Origin: Oscillospiraceae bacterium | GTDB taxonomy: Bacteria > Bacillota > Clostridia > UBA1212 > UBA1255 | Assembly: GCA_015069165.1 (NCBI GenBank) | Contig: SVJD01000004.1 | Span: 4,091 to 68,090 of the forward strand | DNA: 64,000 nt | Reading direction: 5' to 3' | In this document: in pieces, positions 9,040-26,701 of the stretch | Layout of the letters: each line of letters opens with the position of its first letter | Position numbering within the stretch: position 1 is the first letter of the stretch | Program-made: the position numbers and the translations under genes | The notes under the pieces: model-generated | Databases searched by the model: none | What the model was told of the DNA's origin: nothing | The model's input: the letters and a program-made list of their open reading frames with translations, nothing else

Positions 9040-9069
9040 TTGATATAGGGTTAAGCAGTATGGTAGAAT
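9040..9069 (+). promoter_or_regulatory. putative promoter TTGATA-18 nt-(TGg)TAGAAT for the 9.1-11.1 kb operon
   Basis: TTGATA at 9040-9045 and the extended -10 TGgTAGAAT at 9061-9069. Confidence 0.45.
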
Positions 9070-9124: not shown

Positions 9125-9559
9125 ATGAAAAAGACAAAATTATTTTTATTTACATTATGTTTAATAAGTGTTTTGATTTTGCTTGTTTCCTGTAATGAGG
9201 AAAACTACAATGAAGGGTTCAGCGTTAAAACGCCGTCAAGGGCAACTGCAACTACTGAGGCTTCGGCAACAAGTGCCGGTATTTCGGATTCGACGGAAAG
9301 CGGAGCTACTTTGGCACCTACTGCAACACCCACAATGAATGAAAATGAGTTTGGCGAAGAAGTTCTTTTGCCTACTCCGCCTGCAGATGAAGATACGGAT
9401 ACAGATGCAACTGCAAATGTAACTGGGGATAGTTCTGATGTGACGACAACAGGGACTCCTTCTGCGGAGACTGCAACGCCGACACAGCAACCGGTAACAC
9501 AAGTTACCCCGGCAGAAAAAACAGGAATAAATCTTCCGCCTATTTGGTTTAAAAAATAA
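9125..9559 (+). CDS. Ser/Thr/Ala/Pro-rich low-complexity lipoprotein
   Basis: 'MKKTKLFLFTLCLISVLILLVSC' is a signal peptide with a lipobox (LVSC). The remainder is a compositionally biased, acidic T/A/S/P region that ends in 'INLPPIWFKK'. Weak RBS; the track's TTG 9101 is an alternative start. Confidence 0.6.
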   Translation: MKKTKLFLFTLCLISVLILLVSCNEENYNEGFSVKTPSRATATTEASATSAGISDSTESGATLAPTATPTMNENEFGEEVLLPTPPADEDTDTDATANVTGDSSDVTTTGTPSAETATPTQQPVTQVTPAEKTGINLPPIWFKK

Positions 9560-9571
9560 TATTTTGTGAAA

Positions 9572-10291
9572 ATGAGCAGATATAATAAGATGTATTTGTT
9601 TGCGGAGATTCCTGTTCTCGCAAGATATAATTATGATTATTTGGAAAAACAATGTGTTGACTATGTTACGGATAAAGAGCCTCAAATGGTAATAGAGGTA
9701 ACAGAGGAAGATGTTGCAAAAGAAAGAGCGGCTGCCGACGACGGGATAAAATATCCCGCCGGTTATTTGGAGTCCTTAGCTTTTTACCGTAAGTTTTGTG
9801 AGGCAGTTGCATTGCAAAATGTTCTTTTGTTCCACAGTGCGGCAGTAGAAGTTGATGGCAAAGCGTATTTGTTTACTGCGCCTTCAGGTACGGGGAAAAC
9901 TACGCATATAGCTCTTTGGAAGAAGATTCACGGAGAAAAAATGACGATAGTAAACGGAGATAAACCGCTTTTGAAGGTTAATTCCGATGAAATAATTGTT
10001 TACGGCACTCCGTGGGATGGTAAAGAAAGGCAAAGCACTAATGCTTCGGCAAAAGTGGCGGGAATTTGCATACTTACAAGAGGAAAAGAGAATAAAATAA
10101 CAAGAATTGCTTCAAGTGAAGCTCTTGCAACATTGATGTCACAGACATTCAGACCTGCAGGTGCGGAAAGCTTAAAAAAAGTGGTTGAGGGAGTGATAAC
10201 TCTTTCAAGCAGAGTGCCGGTGTGGAAACTTGAGTGTAACATTTCCGAAGAAGCTGCAAGAGTGTCATACGAAGCTATGAGTAAGGGGTAA
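9572..10291 (+). CDS. HPr kinase/phosphorylase C-terminal-like P-loop protein (HprK-related kinase family)
   Basis: 'FHSAAVEVDGKAYLFTAPSGTGKTTHIALW...IVNGDK' matches the HprK pattern H-x3-V-x3-G-x3-L-x2-G-x-SG-x-GKS/T...DD. It starts 12 nt after the lipoprotein stop. Confidence 0.55.
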   Translation: MSRYNKMYLFAEIPVLARYNYDYLEKQCVDYVTDKEPQMVIEVTEEDVAKERAAADDGIKYPAGYLESLAFYRKFCEAVALQNVLLFHSAAVEVDGKAYLFTAPSGTGKTTHIALWKKIHGEKMTIVNGDKPLLKVNSDEIIVYGTPWDGKERQSTNASAKVAGICILTRGKENKITRIASSEALATLMSQTFRPAGAESLKKVVEGVITLSSRVPVWKLECNISEEAARVSYEAMSKG

Positions 10292-10294
10292 AAA

Positions 10295-10549
10295 ATGAAA
10301 CTTAAAGATGTAATTATAAGTGAAGCAAACGGACAAAAAATTGCAGTAAGTGTGGGAGGCAGTTTTAACGGAATGTTAAAACTTAATGATACTGCGGCTT
10401 TTATAGCGGATTTGTTACAGCAAGAAACTACCATAGAAGAAGTTGCACAGAAGCTTTGCGAAGCTTATGAAACAGATATGGAAACAGCAATAAAAAGTGT
10501 AGAATCTGTAGCAGAACAATTCCGTAAAGTCGGACTTATTGAAGAATGA
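10295..10549 (+). CDS. PqqD-family protein (RiPP recognition element-like peptide chaperone)
   Basis: 84 aa. The profile '...AVSVGGSFNGMLKLNDTAAFIADLLQQETTIEEVAQKLCEAYETDMETAIKSVESVAEQFRKVGLIE' is typical of stand-alone PqqD/RRE proteins (beta strands followed by a winged helix). The RBS AAGGGG lies 6 nt upstream. Confidence 0.6.
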   Translation: MKLKDVIISEANGQKIAVSVGGSFNGMLKLNDTAAFIADLLQQETTIEEVAQKLCEAYETDMETAIKSVESVAEQFRKVGLIEE

Positions 10550-11136
10550 AAGAGTCAATAGCAGTAAAAGAATTTCTTGATAAAGAGGGCTATATAATTC
10601 ACCGAATAAAAGGTGTCAGTATGCTTCCTATGCTTGAAGAGGGAAGCGATTTAGTCAAACTTGAGGCCGTAAAAGAAAAAGATAAACTTAAACAATTTGA
10701 CCTTATACTCTTTGAAAGAGAGGGCGATGGGGCGTTGGTGTTGCATCGCATTATAAAGGTCAAAAAGAAATACTATATTACTTACGGGGATAACTGTGTA
10801 AATTACGAAGTCGTTCCGTTTGATTCTGTTTTGGCTTTGGCTGTGGGCTTCTATAAAAAAGAGAAGTATGTTTCCTGTGATAATCCGCAGTATTTGGAAT
10901 ATGTAGAAAAAAGATGCAGCTGCATCAAAAACAGAGAAATTTATAAAAAACAACGCCTTGAAGATGAACAAAGAGCACAGCATATAAAAGAACGTTCCTT
11001 TATAAGAAAAATTTTTCCGTCAAAAAGGTTTATGAAACAGGCATTTCCTTTATTGACAATATATCCTGTTTTGTTGCCTTATTTTTGGTTTGTCAGATTG
11101 ATAAGAGGGATAAAACGTCAAATTACAAAAAAATAG
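10546..11136 (+). CDS. S24/S26-family Ser-Lys peptidase with a C-terminal membrane anchor
   Basis: 'IKGVSMLPML' (Ser nucleophile motif, GxSMxP) and 'LHRIIKV' (candidate general-base Lys). C-terminal hydrophobic helix 'AFPLLTIYPVLLPYFWFVRLI'. It overlaps the PqqD gene through ATGA. Confidence 0.6.
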   Translation: MKESIAVKEFLDKEGYIIHRIKGVSMLPMLEEGSDLVKLEAVKEKDKLKQFDLILFEREGDGALVLHRIIKVKKKYYITYGDNCVNYEVVPFDSVLALAVGFYKKEKYVSCDNPQYLEYVEKRCSCIKNREIYKKQRLEDEQRAQHIKERSFIRKIFPSKRFMKQAFPLLTIYPVLLPYFWFVRLIRGIKRQITKK

Positions 11137-11145
11137 CAAATAAAA

Positions 11146-11175
11146 AGCGCCGGCTTGACCGGCGCTGATTTTTTA
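11146..11175. terminator. bidirectional intrinsic terminator
   Basis: AGCGCCGG-cttga-CCGGCGCT followed by a T-run, with an A-run on the other side. It closes both the + operon and the converging M23 gene. Confidence 0.7.
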
Positions 11176-11871
11176 TTTCCAATATTGTGTGGGATCAAGA
11201 GGGATGTCATTTTCTGTCAATTCAAAGTGAATGTGAGCACCTTGTGCTTTCTCACAGAAAATGTCGTCACCAACAACACCGATTACACTTCCGGCTTTTA
11301 CTTCACTGCCGGCAATGATGCCTTCGGCTGTATTTGCCAAACCGCAATATACTGTTGAAAAAGTTCTGCCGTTTGTTTCGTGATTTATTACAATGCTGAG
11401 ACCGTATCTGGGGTCAGATTTTATTGCAGAAACGATACCGTTTGCCGCTGCTTTTACCTGAGTGCCTGCAGCTGCTTCGATGTCGATACCGCTATGTGTG
11501 CGCCACTCTTGTAAAGTTGTATTGTATACGAGCTTTTTCGCCGCAAATTCTGCTTGGATTTCTCCTTCAACAGGCTTCATTATAACAATTTCGCCTGAAT
11601 TGTCGGTATTATTTCCCGATTGCTCGCCCGATTGAGAATCATCTACAGGCTTTGAAGCCTGCGCAGATTGCGTGGGTGTGGGCTCTTTGGGCGGATTTGT
11701 TGGGGAAATCGGGTTTGAAACAGGCGTATTGTAGGAAATTATAGGCTCATCTACTGTGGCGTTTCCGGAATAAATTACGGAAATTCCAACCACTACTACA
11801 ACAGCAAGACAAATAAGAGCTAAAAGAATATAGCCCTTGTTTTTAATAAAATCAACAATCGTATCTTTCAT
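11173..11871 (-). CDS. membrane-anchored M23 (LytM) metallopeptidase; SpoIIQ-like architecture
   Basis: N-terminal TM, a Pro/Thr-rich linker, then 'HSGIDI' (HxxxD) and 'HIHFE' (HxH). The size and layout resemble clostridial SpoIIQ, but I cannot distinguish it from other M23 peptidases. Confidence 0.8.
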   Translation of the reverse strand: MKDTIVDFIKNKGYILLALICLAVVVVVGISVIYSGNATVDEPIISYNTPVSNPISPTNPPKEPTPTQSAQASKPVDDSQSGEQSGNNTDNSGEIVIMKPVEGEIQAEFAAKKLVYNTTLQEWRTHSGIDIEAAAGTQVKAAANGIVSAIKSDPRYGLSIVINHETNGRTFSTVYCGLANTAEGIIAGSEVKAGSVIGVVGDDIFCEKAQGAHIHFELTENDIPLDPTQYWK

Positions 11872-26520: not shown

Positions 26521-26701
26521 TTTCGGTATGTTGCAATAAAAACAGAATACATTTTGCCGAAGACAGCGGGCATCGCTATTGCGAGTAAGGCCGGCCGAGG
26601 TTAATTGATTTACAGATCTTTACCCTTTTGTGTCTTTGGCGCAAAAGGGTTTTCTGATTTTATAGATGATGGGACAATTTGATAAGGAGGTGTTTGTAAG
26701 G
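26521..26701 (+). promoter_or_regulatory. ribosomal protein L10 leader (rplJL autoregulatory leader) with attenuator hairpin
   Basis: A 180-nt structured gap precedes rplJ. It has the helix UUCGGU...GCCGAA, a GC-rich core 'GGCCGGCCGAGG', and the hairpin CCCUUUUG-N11-CAAAAGGG followed by UUUUCU (26623-26655). Confidence 0.6.

Follow-up and report, generated by a model that had tools for sequence, protein, structure and literature searches.

Four co-directional genes lie tightly packed at 9125-11136 of a 64,000-nt stretch of DNA from an Oscillospiraceae bacterium (contig SVJD01000004.1; hereafter the window). They encode a lipoprotein, a ScmC-like P-loop protein, a stand-alone PqqD-type recognition element (RRE) for peptides made on ribosomes and modified after translation (RiPPs), and an S26-like peptidase. 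We propose that this operon is a reduced member of a widespread, undescribed peptide-processing cassette of gut and rumen Clostridia, with the lipoprotein as its likely partner and putative substrate, a reading to which we give an even chance. The proposal builds on gene content, folds, conservation, gene fusions, a family of short peptides and a shared sequence motif, and from these we infer the catalytic steps and the identity of the substrate. That the four genes form one operon is part of the same best explanation. The open reading frames (ORFs), their spacings (12 nt, 3 nt and then a 4-nt ATGA overlap, read off the sequence) and all motifs quoted in a preliminary description of the locus were present, so its single unit of four genes stood. 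Three of the labels given there to the motifs (HprK-like, Ser-Lys peptidase and C-terminal transmembrane helix) needed correction, as described below. The cassette family is best filed as a RiPP-type, lasso-like toolkit. In the literature searched on the peptide motif, PF14907, ScmC, SynChlorMet, HPr-rel-A and RRE surveys, no description of the cassette or of the peptide family was found.

A scan of reference genomes returned 80 related loci, carried mostly by uncultured gut and rumen Clostridia (Ruminococcus, Acutalibacteraceae, Lachnospiraceae and Oscillospiraceae), with a minority in Bifidobacterium, Bacteroidales, Synergistaceae, Atopobiaceae and Bacilli. Altogether 87 loci (cited by L numbers) were analysed and 84 were clustered by gene neighbourhood, many of them cut by contig ends. 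The genes were strongly co-conserved, with a PqqD gene present in 69 of the 87 loci, an S26-like gene in 60 and an NTP_transf_5 nucleotidyltransferase gene in 35. An ATP-binding cassette (ABC) exporter (ABC_membrane plus ABC_tran) was found in 33 of the 84 clustered loci, and radical SAM/SPASM RiPP maturases occurred in four loci. The usual order was ScmC, PqqD, S26, ABC exporter and NTP_transf_5, and the commonest S26-like form in other loci was a stand-alone protein of about 145 residues without the nucleotidyltransferase. Single proteins also combine the ScmC-like domain with PqqD (P0331), with the S26-like domain (P0302, P0401, L029), with NTP_transf_5 (P0363) or with a radical SAM enzyme (P0413), which argues strongly that these partners work together. 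Although the locus had been regarded as an orphan, it appears instead as the reduced form within a large family, the fuller versions of which contain the nucleotidyltransferase, the exporter, precursors and, in some cases, radical SAM enzymes. Neither an asparagine-synthetase-like cyclase nor a transglutaminase-like B2 protease recurred in the 84 clustered loci or appeared in Pfam scans of 16 large neighbouring ORFs, and a hidden cyclase or B2 was rejected on these searches. Related cassettes were also noted in two isolates, Porcipelethomonas ammoniilytica (L023) and Blautia aquisgranensis (L079).

The 239-residue protein had been called HprK-like, and this label held at the level of fold and superfamily but not at that of the named families. 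The Pfam model Hpr_kinase_C (PF07475) gave no match at E ≤ 1. The NCBIfam model HprK_rel_A (TIGR04352) reached 21.9 bits against a cut-off of 200, aligning only residues 75-114 (about 40 residues around the P-loop), and ScmC (TIGR04249) reached 21.3 bits against 125, over the P-loop only. A precomputed Pfam assignment, PF27840 'ScmC', was present on the protein and on all 1,807 homologues found, flagged 'weak' for some, and at E ≤ 1e-3 the family comprised 12,383 representative clusters. The AlphaFold2 model had a predicted local distance difference test score (pLDDT) of 94.3, and Foldseek matched it to PEPCK (E about 1e-6) and to HprK/P structures (3tqf, 1kkm and 1jb1; E 2-4e-5). His88, Asp130 and the segments A-P-S-G-T-G-K-[ST]-T-H, N-[GD]-D-K-P and G-T-P-[WY]-D-G-K were invariant in the alignment. 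The predicted fold, together with the conserved His, P-loop and Asp, is that of a P-loop kinase of the PEPCK/HprK type. Sequence searches of the Protein Data Bank gave nothing useful for this protein or for the peptidase-like one.

Judged by its profile match, the 84-residue protein is clearly a bona fide PqqD/RRE, as had been supposed. It scored 56.7 bits against a cut-off of 23.4 with the Pfam PqqD model (PF05402), and residues 16-82 covered profile positions 3-67 of 67, nearly the full domain. The nearest NCBIfam models were the lasso B1 chaperones NF033530 (32.7 bits against 70) and NF033536 (27.7 against 80), both below their cut-offs; the ScmD model (TIGR04248) gave 12.4 bits against 100. 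In the window clade, PqqD kept 16 of the 24 columns that are conserved in the PqqDs of peptide-containing loci, including all the invariant ones.

The 196-residue protein was earlier described as a membrane-bound Ser-Lys peptidase of the S24/S26 type. The S24/S26 assignment was sound at the level of fold, while the Ser-Lys dyad and the membrane anchor were both rejected. Its top family matches were the archaeal-type signal peptidase I (sigpep_I_arch, TIGR02228; 34.9 bits against 51.85) and SipW (NF046067; 29.1 against 190), and Pfam PF10502 (signal peptidase I, S26) gave 13.8 bits against 22.9. The AlphaFold2 model (pLDDT 86) was matched by Foldseek to SpsB, SEC11C, SipA, LexA and UmuD. In all 57 homologous domains, G-x-S25-M-x-P, D52, H67-R68, G81-D82-N83 and E88 were invariant, whereas Lys71, the lysine of 'HRIIKV', was present in only 26. 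The boxes follow the Ser/His/Asp pattern of S26B enzymes (SipW, Sec11 and archaeal), and the predicted fold with these boxes places the protein in the S24/S26 clan as an S26B-type candidate. No N-terminal hydrophobic segment, transmembrane anchor or signal peptide was found, and the C-terminal hydrophobic stretch was borderline (Kyte-Doolittle 19-residue maximum 1.5; the median for stand-alone homologues, which are not hydrophobic here, was 0.92). Good evidence for embedding in the membrane was thus lacking from the sequence.

The origin of that C-terminal helix became clear from the syntenic locus L001, where the third gene, lying between trpS and M23/pheST, encodes 516 residues, in which an S26-like domain is followed by NTP_transf_5 (PF14907, 141.9 bits) and then by a C-terminal tail. 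By BLASTP the window protein aligned to residues 1-137 of this fusion (61% identity) and again to residues 441-489, the latter stretch corresponding to window residues 144-188. The supposed transmembrane helix is therefore the retained C-terminal helix of the nucleotidyltransferase, and the NTP_transf_5 hidden Markov model (HMM) still detected the retained tail at 29.7 bits. The short form (197-220 residues) was also found in L087, L088 and L089, whose ScmC-like proteins are 75-90% identical to that of the window, while the full-length fusion was found in the outgroups L090, L007 and L001 (65-71% identical). From this distribution it follows that, as far as the alignments show, a nucleotidyltransferase core of about 300 residues was lost in frame in the clade ancestor. 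The preliminary description had the locus simply lacking a nucleotidyltransferase, but an internal deletion in the third gene removed the core and left a remnant behind. What is annotated as an 'S24/S26 family peptidase' of 196 residues is thus the deletion remnant of a peptidase-nucleotidyltransferase fusion.

The shortened cassette nevertheless remained under purifying selection and is not decaying. At synonymous divergences (dS) of 0.5-1.2, the ratio of nonsynonymous to synonymous substitution rates (dN/dS) ranged from 0.08 to 0.14 in the ScmC-like gene, from 0.03 to 0.09 in PqqD and from 0.09 to 0.21 across the whole peptidase gene. It was 0.27-0.49 for the lipoprotein gene and 0.01-0.07 for the flanking TrpRS and MntP genes.

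Short leader-bearing peptides were found beside the related cassettes. In about 25 loci, 37 such ORFs adjoined the cassette, with up to six tandem copies per locus. Their leader follows the consensus M-x-K-Y-E-x-P-E-M-E-[VI]-[IV]-x-F-E-x-E-D-V-I-T-T-S-G, and the core is short and variable, with many Gly, Thr, Asp and Glu residues. The peptides matched no model in Pfam or NCBIfam, and a profile search returned at least 2,942 clusters of peptides of 31-65 residues, unnamed or called 'hypothetical protein'. When numbered in the lasso register, 150 of 157 peptides fitted the pattern YxxPxM at -17 to -12, V/I at -2 and Ser at +3, the register itself being set by Ile(-1) and Ser(+3), so that neither of these is an independent observation. 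Tyr occupied -17 in 97%, Pro -14 in 57%, Met, Ile or Leu -12 in 100%, Asp -3 in 99% and Val or Ile -2 in 100%, followed by Thr at +1 (93%), Thr at +2 (85%) and Gly at +4 (80%). Signal peptidases follow a rule of small residues at -1 and -3, and an alternative cleavage between Ser and Gly of T-T-S-G would, by analogy, fit that rule.

Several features of the peptide loci were noted in addition. Tandem arrays at L012:2215-3220 (six peptides) and L025:851-1333 (four to five) combine near-identical leaders with differing cores, as is typical of diversifying RiPP precursors. Radical SAM/SPASM cassettes with one or two maturases were located at L031:8461-11415, L067:8046-9389 and L058:4285-5595, and the fusion P0413 is a further example. 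The L031 peptide core contains Cys-Cys (...SGDNCCDNGG...), and cassettes of this type suggest a thioether-type sub-branch of the same leader family. At L095:7001-7156 and L096:1459-1614, a leader-bearing peptide (...TTSGDNNELPPMPIQ) has as neighbours an Acyl_transf_3 protein, a two-component system and an ABC ATPase, whereas a cassette of ScmC, PqqD or S26 genes is missing from the vicinity. Such a context hints at a signalling role or a different maturation route.

The lipoprotein carries a signal peptide and a lipobox of the form [LVI][ASTVI][GAS]C, as bacterial lipoproteins do. The linker that follows is hypervariable, rich in Thr, Ala, Glu, Pro and Ser, and of low complexity. The gene was syntenic across the clade, and in the clade alignment conservation was confined to the lipobox, to one mid motif and to the tail, K-T-G-I-x-L-P-P-I-W-F. 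In many divergent loci, too, the cassette was adjoined by a lipoprotein or anchored protein of low complexity, with '(P)IELPF[IV]P', 'IRLPIIWF' or 'IDLPIDWN' at its end. In its strict form, [LM]P[FPIV][IVD][PW] within the last 12 residues, the motif was found in 19 of 12,168 ORFs, and 17 of these 19 were cassette-associated tail proteins or leader-bearing peptides. The same motif ends about 16% of the peptide cores, for example TASG-ELPFVPAE and ...TVMPIIWN. When we started from peptides on long contigs, the next gene encoded an anchored low-complexity protein ending in ...TIELPFVPAE (L091) or ...NELPFVPVF (L093). Peptide and protein tails were more alike within a locus than between loci, the observed score being reached in 122 of 5,040 permutations. 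The earlier guess that the adjacent lipoprotein is involved thus gained good comparative support from synteny and the tail motif, and its part as substrate is putative.

Variations on this arrangement were seen elsewhere. At L022:6501-7681 and L047:6379-7681, a tail-motif lipoprotein (ending in ...AIELPFIPIENIQ and ...PVELPFVPIN, respectively) precedes a solitary ScmC-like gene, PqqD and S26-like genes being absent, which suggests that the tightest functional pairing may be that of the ScmC-like enzyme with the tail-motif protein. Truncated ScmC-like ORFs follow an intact pair of peptide and tail-motif lipoprotein at L093:7701-8012 (103 aa) and L094:6733-7200 (155 aa); here the cassette seems to be decaying while the pair persists. 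At L003-L005:7113-7991, a DUF4097 lipoprotein (292 aa, no LP-type tail) lies upstream of the cassette and replaces the low-complexity lipoprotein. Very large secreted proteins (about 700-1,700 aa) recurred directly upstream of the peptide gene or cassette (L013, L027, L030, L036, L039, L041, L052, L069, L078 and L091-L094). Some had faint 'Glug' Pfam matches and several had a C-terminal A-x-Y-x-Y-x-x-A-x-x-x-F/Y motif, and they may be another component or target of the system.

The closest known parallels are the phosphorylated and phosphoglycosylated lasso peptide pathways, namely those of paeninodin (PadeK/B1/B2/D), pseudomycoidin (PsmK/PsmN) and Bradymonas (BsfK/B1/B2). In the Bsf pathway, the leader has YxxPxL at -17 to -12 with Ile/Val(-2) variants, the HprK-like kinase BsfK phosphorylates core Ser3, and the B1 RRE assists both kinase and protease (PMC10368454). 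The nucleotidyltransferase N, described together with kinase K, acts by glycosylating this phosphate, and in some cases it forms a fusion with the protease (PMC8498205). Like this K/B1/N/D toolkit, the cassette family has an HprK-like kinase, a stand-alone PqqD/B1 protein and an ABC exporter, and its nucleotidyltransferase adjoins or is fused to the leader protease. The cassette peptides share the leader pattern too, with Y-x-x-P-x-(L/M) at -17 to -12, V/I at -2 and Ser at core position 3. In contrast to the lasso pathways, however, neither cyclase nor B2 was found in any locus examined, and an S26-fold Ser/His peptidase occupies the position of the protease. The window departs further, in that it is without N, D and a leader peptide, its PqqD falls below the NCBIfam B1 cut-offs, and a lipoprotein with a core-like tail belongs to the system. 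Searches across the 64 kb of the window turned up no cyclase and no B2 protease, nor did they show a radical SAM gene, an intact nucleotidyltransferase, an exporter of the cassette type or a peptide with the leader, and neither second cassette copies nor the missing parts were found elsewhere in it.

Two other systems share the pairing of a P-loop protein with a PqqD-like partner. The SynChlorMet proteins ScmC and ScmD (TIGR04249 and TIGR04248; PF27840) do so, and some cassette relatives also resemble SynChlorMet in including or fusing radical SAM/SPASM maturases. The window proteins nevertheless scored far below both models, as given above, and the window is without radical SAM genes. The SCM cassette is found in other taxa and is not known to come with a peptidase or lipoprotein. 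The HPr-rel-A system (TIGR04352), to which the locus had been compared, has in common with it the concept of pairing an HprK-related P-loop protein with one of the PqqD family, joined in relatives by a PF14907 nucleotidyltransferase. Membership was not borne out, given the low score over some 40 residues and the fact that the window PqqD gave no match to the PqqD model of that system at E ≤ 1; the term 'HPr-rel-A' was not found in the literature searched. As for the peptidase, it resembles S26B signal peptidase I (endoplasmic reticulum, archaeal and SipW types) in its beta-barrel fold and in the boxes G-x-S-M-x-P, H-R and G-D-N. It differs from these enzymes in its scores below the cut-offs, in having no N-terminal transmembrane anchor, in its domain of about 135 residues, and in belonging to a family coupled to, and sometimes fused with, the kinase-like protein, the RRE and the nucleotidyltransferase.

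On these grounds we propose the following scheme. The full cassette consists of the ScmC-like enzyme, PqqD, a small, putatively cytoplasmic Ser/His peptidase of the S26B type, an NTP_transf_5 protein (often fused to the peptidase) and an ABC exporter, with precursors encoded next to it. PqqD would dock the substrate, and the ScmC-like enzyme would then phosphorylate, at the expense of ATP, a Ser or Thr close to the motif, which in the short peptides may be the invariant Ser at +3. The cytoplasmic S26-type peptidase would cut next to the phosphorylated residue. In fuller cassettes, NTP_transf_5 would decorate the phosphate and the ABC pump would export the product. Because there is no cyclase and an S26-type peptidase stands in the place of B2, the products are expected to be short linear peptides. 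In the window lineage, where the nucleotidyltransferase core has been deleted and neither exporter nor leader peptide lies nearby, the co-transcribed lipoprotein would be the partner, and its Sec/lipobox signal, rather than the ABC pump, would carry the product to the surface as a tethered peptide.

A number of observations weigh against this scheme. All matches to curated kinase and signal-peptidase families were below cut-off. In 18 of the 87 loci, the ScmC-like gene occurred without PqqD or the peptidase, so the cassette linkage is frequent but not obligate, and the peptides also occurred without the cassette. The tail motif has no conserved Ser or Thr and is therefore unlikely to be the phosphorylation site itself. 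Nor was a leader embedded in the lipoprotein established. By eye, the mid motif segment TATPTMNENEFGEEVLL lines up with the peptide leader segment YETPEMEVIEFETEDVI, and hhalign placed lipoprotein and leader in the same register, yet over only 7 columns (P = 0.043, probability 1.2%). The leader HMM gave at most 1.3 bits on 22 lipoproteins, no better than 2,200 shuffles (best 4.6). The ligand of PqqD may instead be a leader peptide encoded elsewhere. An exporter was present in one of eight lipoprotein-only loci, four of 11 peptide-only loci and all three loci with both; this trend is in the expected direction but is suggestive only, being confounded by shared ancestry, with six of the eight lipoprotein-only loci from one clade. 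Finally, modification in the cytoplasm followed by Sec export would be unusual.

Some of these points lead to the main alternative, which we hold possible and take seriously, while considering it somewhat unlikely. Here the enzymes would act on a leader-bearing peptide encoded elsewhere, and the lipoprotein would be a surface partner with the same epitope, for instance a ligand tethered there, a decoy or competitor, or a protein that confers immunity to the secreted peptide or mimics its receptor. The complete set of invariant residues kept by the window-clade PqqD speaks for it, as does the very large size of the peptide family, which is sometimes encoded apart from the cassette. The lipoprotein, moreover, is without a significant leader, and peptide and tethered protein are paired in L016, L017, L033, L043, L070, L091 and L093. 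Against it, no leader-bearing peptide was found in the window or within the flanks of about 3-8 kb on each side in six clade relatives, all six of which carry the lipoprotein. The lineage also has no nearby ABC exporter for a free peptide, and the lipoprotein gene lies 12 nt upstream of the enzymes in the same operon.

It is improbable that the S26-like protein is dedicated to the lipoprotein as its signal or pro-peptide peptidase, in the way that SipW serves TasA, with the kinase-like protein and PqqD acting as export chaperones or regulators instead of maturing peptides. Such a role would agree with the archaeal and SipW-type signal peptidases as top family matches, with the structural matches to SpsB, SEC11C and SipA, and with the secreted protein adjoining the gene in many loci. 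However, the active site should be cytoplasmic, since the protein has neither N-terminal anchor nor signal peptide, and the classical lipobox makes the lipoprotein a predicted substrate of signal peptidase II. Many loci, besides, pair the peptidase with non-secreted leader peptides and an ABC exporter.

We consider it very improbable that the window contains no more than the decaying, non-functional relic of a cassette whose nucleotidyltransferase, exporter and precursor were lost. The deletion of about 300 residues inside the third gene, the missing exporter and precursor, and the truncated ScmC remnants in L093 and L094 would suit that idea. Nevertheless, all four ORFs are intact in four lineages at the divergences given above, the dN/dS of the enzyme genes spans only 0.03-0.21, the catalytic boxes are kept, and stand-alone S26-like genes of about 145 residues are the commonest form elsewhere. 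A canonical lasso cluster whose cyclase, B2 and precursor were lost to misassembly, a thought prompted by the lasso-like parts list and leader register, is practically out of the question, as the same gene order recurs between trpS/mntP and M23/pheST in the independent assemblies L087-L090 and L001, and no Asn-synthase-like or transglutaminase-like gene recurred in the 84 clustered loci or was among the 16 large ORFs scanned.

Going beyond the proposal that the operon is a reduced peptide-processing cassette, the family may represent a new class of ribosomal peptides with linear products, descended from or assembled like the phosphorylated-lasso toolkit. Its epitope LP-x-[IV]-[PW] would exist in free (ABC-exported) and tethered forms, the window lineage having the tethered form only, with the RRE, the HprK-like enzyme and the S26 peptidase acting directly on a Sec-exported lipoprotein. 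Taken as a whole, this extended statement is tentative and in our view unlikely to hold in every part. If true, this would be the first lipoprotein to be matured by RiPP-type machinery, with one peptide epitope put to use both free and tethered at the cell surface. The cassette reading, for its part, would entail a swap of leader proteases, an S26 Ser/His peptidase having replaced an unrelated Cys protease of the transglutaminase fold. By the cluster counts given above, cassette and peptides alike are highly abundant in the metagenomes of gut and rumen, and, if the reading is right, dominant gut anaerobes make a large and so far unexplored family of peptides that are small, linear and probably phosphorylated. 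Annotation lags behind, with nearly all cassette proteins and peptides called 'hypothetical protein' and no curated model for the peptides. Lasso genome-mining rules commonly depend on the cyclase and the B2 protease. These loci have neither, so current rules would probably miss the family.

Features of the operon and its borders, with positions in the window
Feature	Position	Strand	Remarks
Promoter-like site	9040-9069	+	TTGATA, 18 nt, TAGAAT, extended -10 TG; consensus scan; upstream of lipoprotein gene
Lipoprotein gene	9125-9559	+	144 aa; ORF and sequence
Lipobox LLVS-C23	9179-9193	+	signal peptide MKKTKLFLFTLCLISVLILLVS-C23, conserved across clade
Mid motif TATPTMNENEFGEEVLLPTPP	9320-9382	+	clade-conserved
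C-terminal tail KTGINLPPIWFKK	9518-9556	+	conserved
ScmC-like P-loop protein gene	9572-10291	+	239 aa; predicted PEPCK/HprK fold; putative peptide kinase or phosphotransferase
P-loop APSGTGKTTH	9878-9907	+	invariant columns
NGDKP	9953-9967	+	invariant columns
GTPWDGK	10004-10024	+	invariant columns
Stand-alone PqqD-type RRE gene	10295-10549	+	84 aa
Conserved strand and helix region SFNGMLKLNDTAAFI	10361-10405	+	within PqqD
Third-enzyme gene (S26-like peptidase)	10546-11136	+	196 aa
S24/S26-fold peptidase domain	10546-10950	+	residues 1-135
Box G-V-S25-M-L-P	10612-10629	+	catalytic-type
Box L-H67-R68	10741-10749	+	catalytic-type
Box G81-D-N	10786-10794	+	catalytic-type
Helical linker and retained NTP_transf_5 C-terminal tail	10951-11136	+	marks in-frame deletion of about 300 aa
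Retained tail IKERSF...ITKK	10984-11133	+	NTP_transf_5 remnant
Hydrophobic helix PLLTIYPVLLPYFWFVRLI	11047-11103	+	in retained NTP_transf_5 tail
G+C-rich hairpin	11146-11166	both	8-9 bp stem, 7 G-C pairs, T-runs on both strands; terminator scan
Peptidase_M23-type gene	11173-11871	-	convergent with cassette

The borders of the operon were also inspected, since both a promoter and a terminator had been claimed in the preliminary description. Both were found, but only the terminator stood. The hairpin behind the last gene reads as a bidirectional terminator common to the operon and the convergent M23 gene, while the promoter-like site is weak evidence because such sites occur at chance frequency in the region (11 sigma-70-like sites found, 10.6 expected). 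The G+C content of the operon (0.384) was close to that of the window (0.383). No PADLOC model of anti-phage defence matched any of the four proteins at E ≤ 0.01, and membership of a known defence system was rejected.

The convergent M23 gene was syntenic in all clade members (L001 and L087-L090). In L001 and L090, both with the full-length fusion, it is separated from the cassette by a GH43 gene, which the deletion clade is without. A long antisense 'shadow' ORF was present inside the ScmC-like gene (window 10000-10434, minus strand), with an equivalent position in 18 loci, and was clustered as an apparent family in the neighbourhood analysis. It reads as a by-product of the conserved sense-strand codons and not as a gene. 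The sole Rfam match at the gathering threshold in the window was a ribosomal protein L10 leader at 26539-26664 on the plus strand (57.3 bits against a gathering score of 44).

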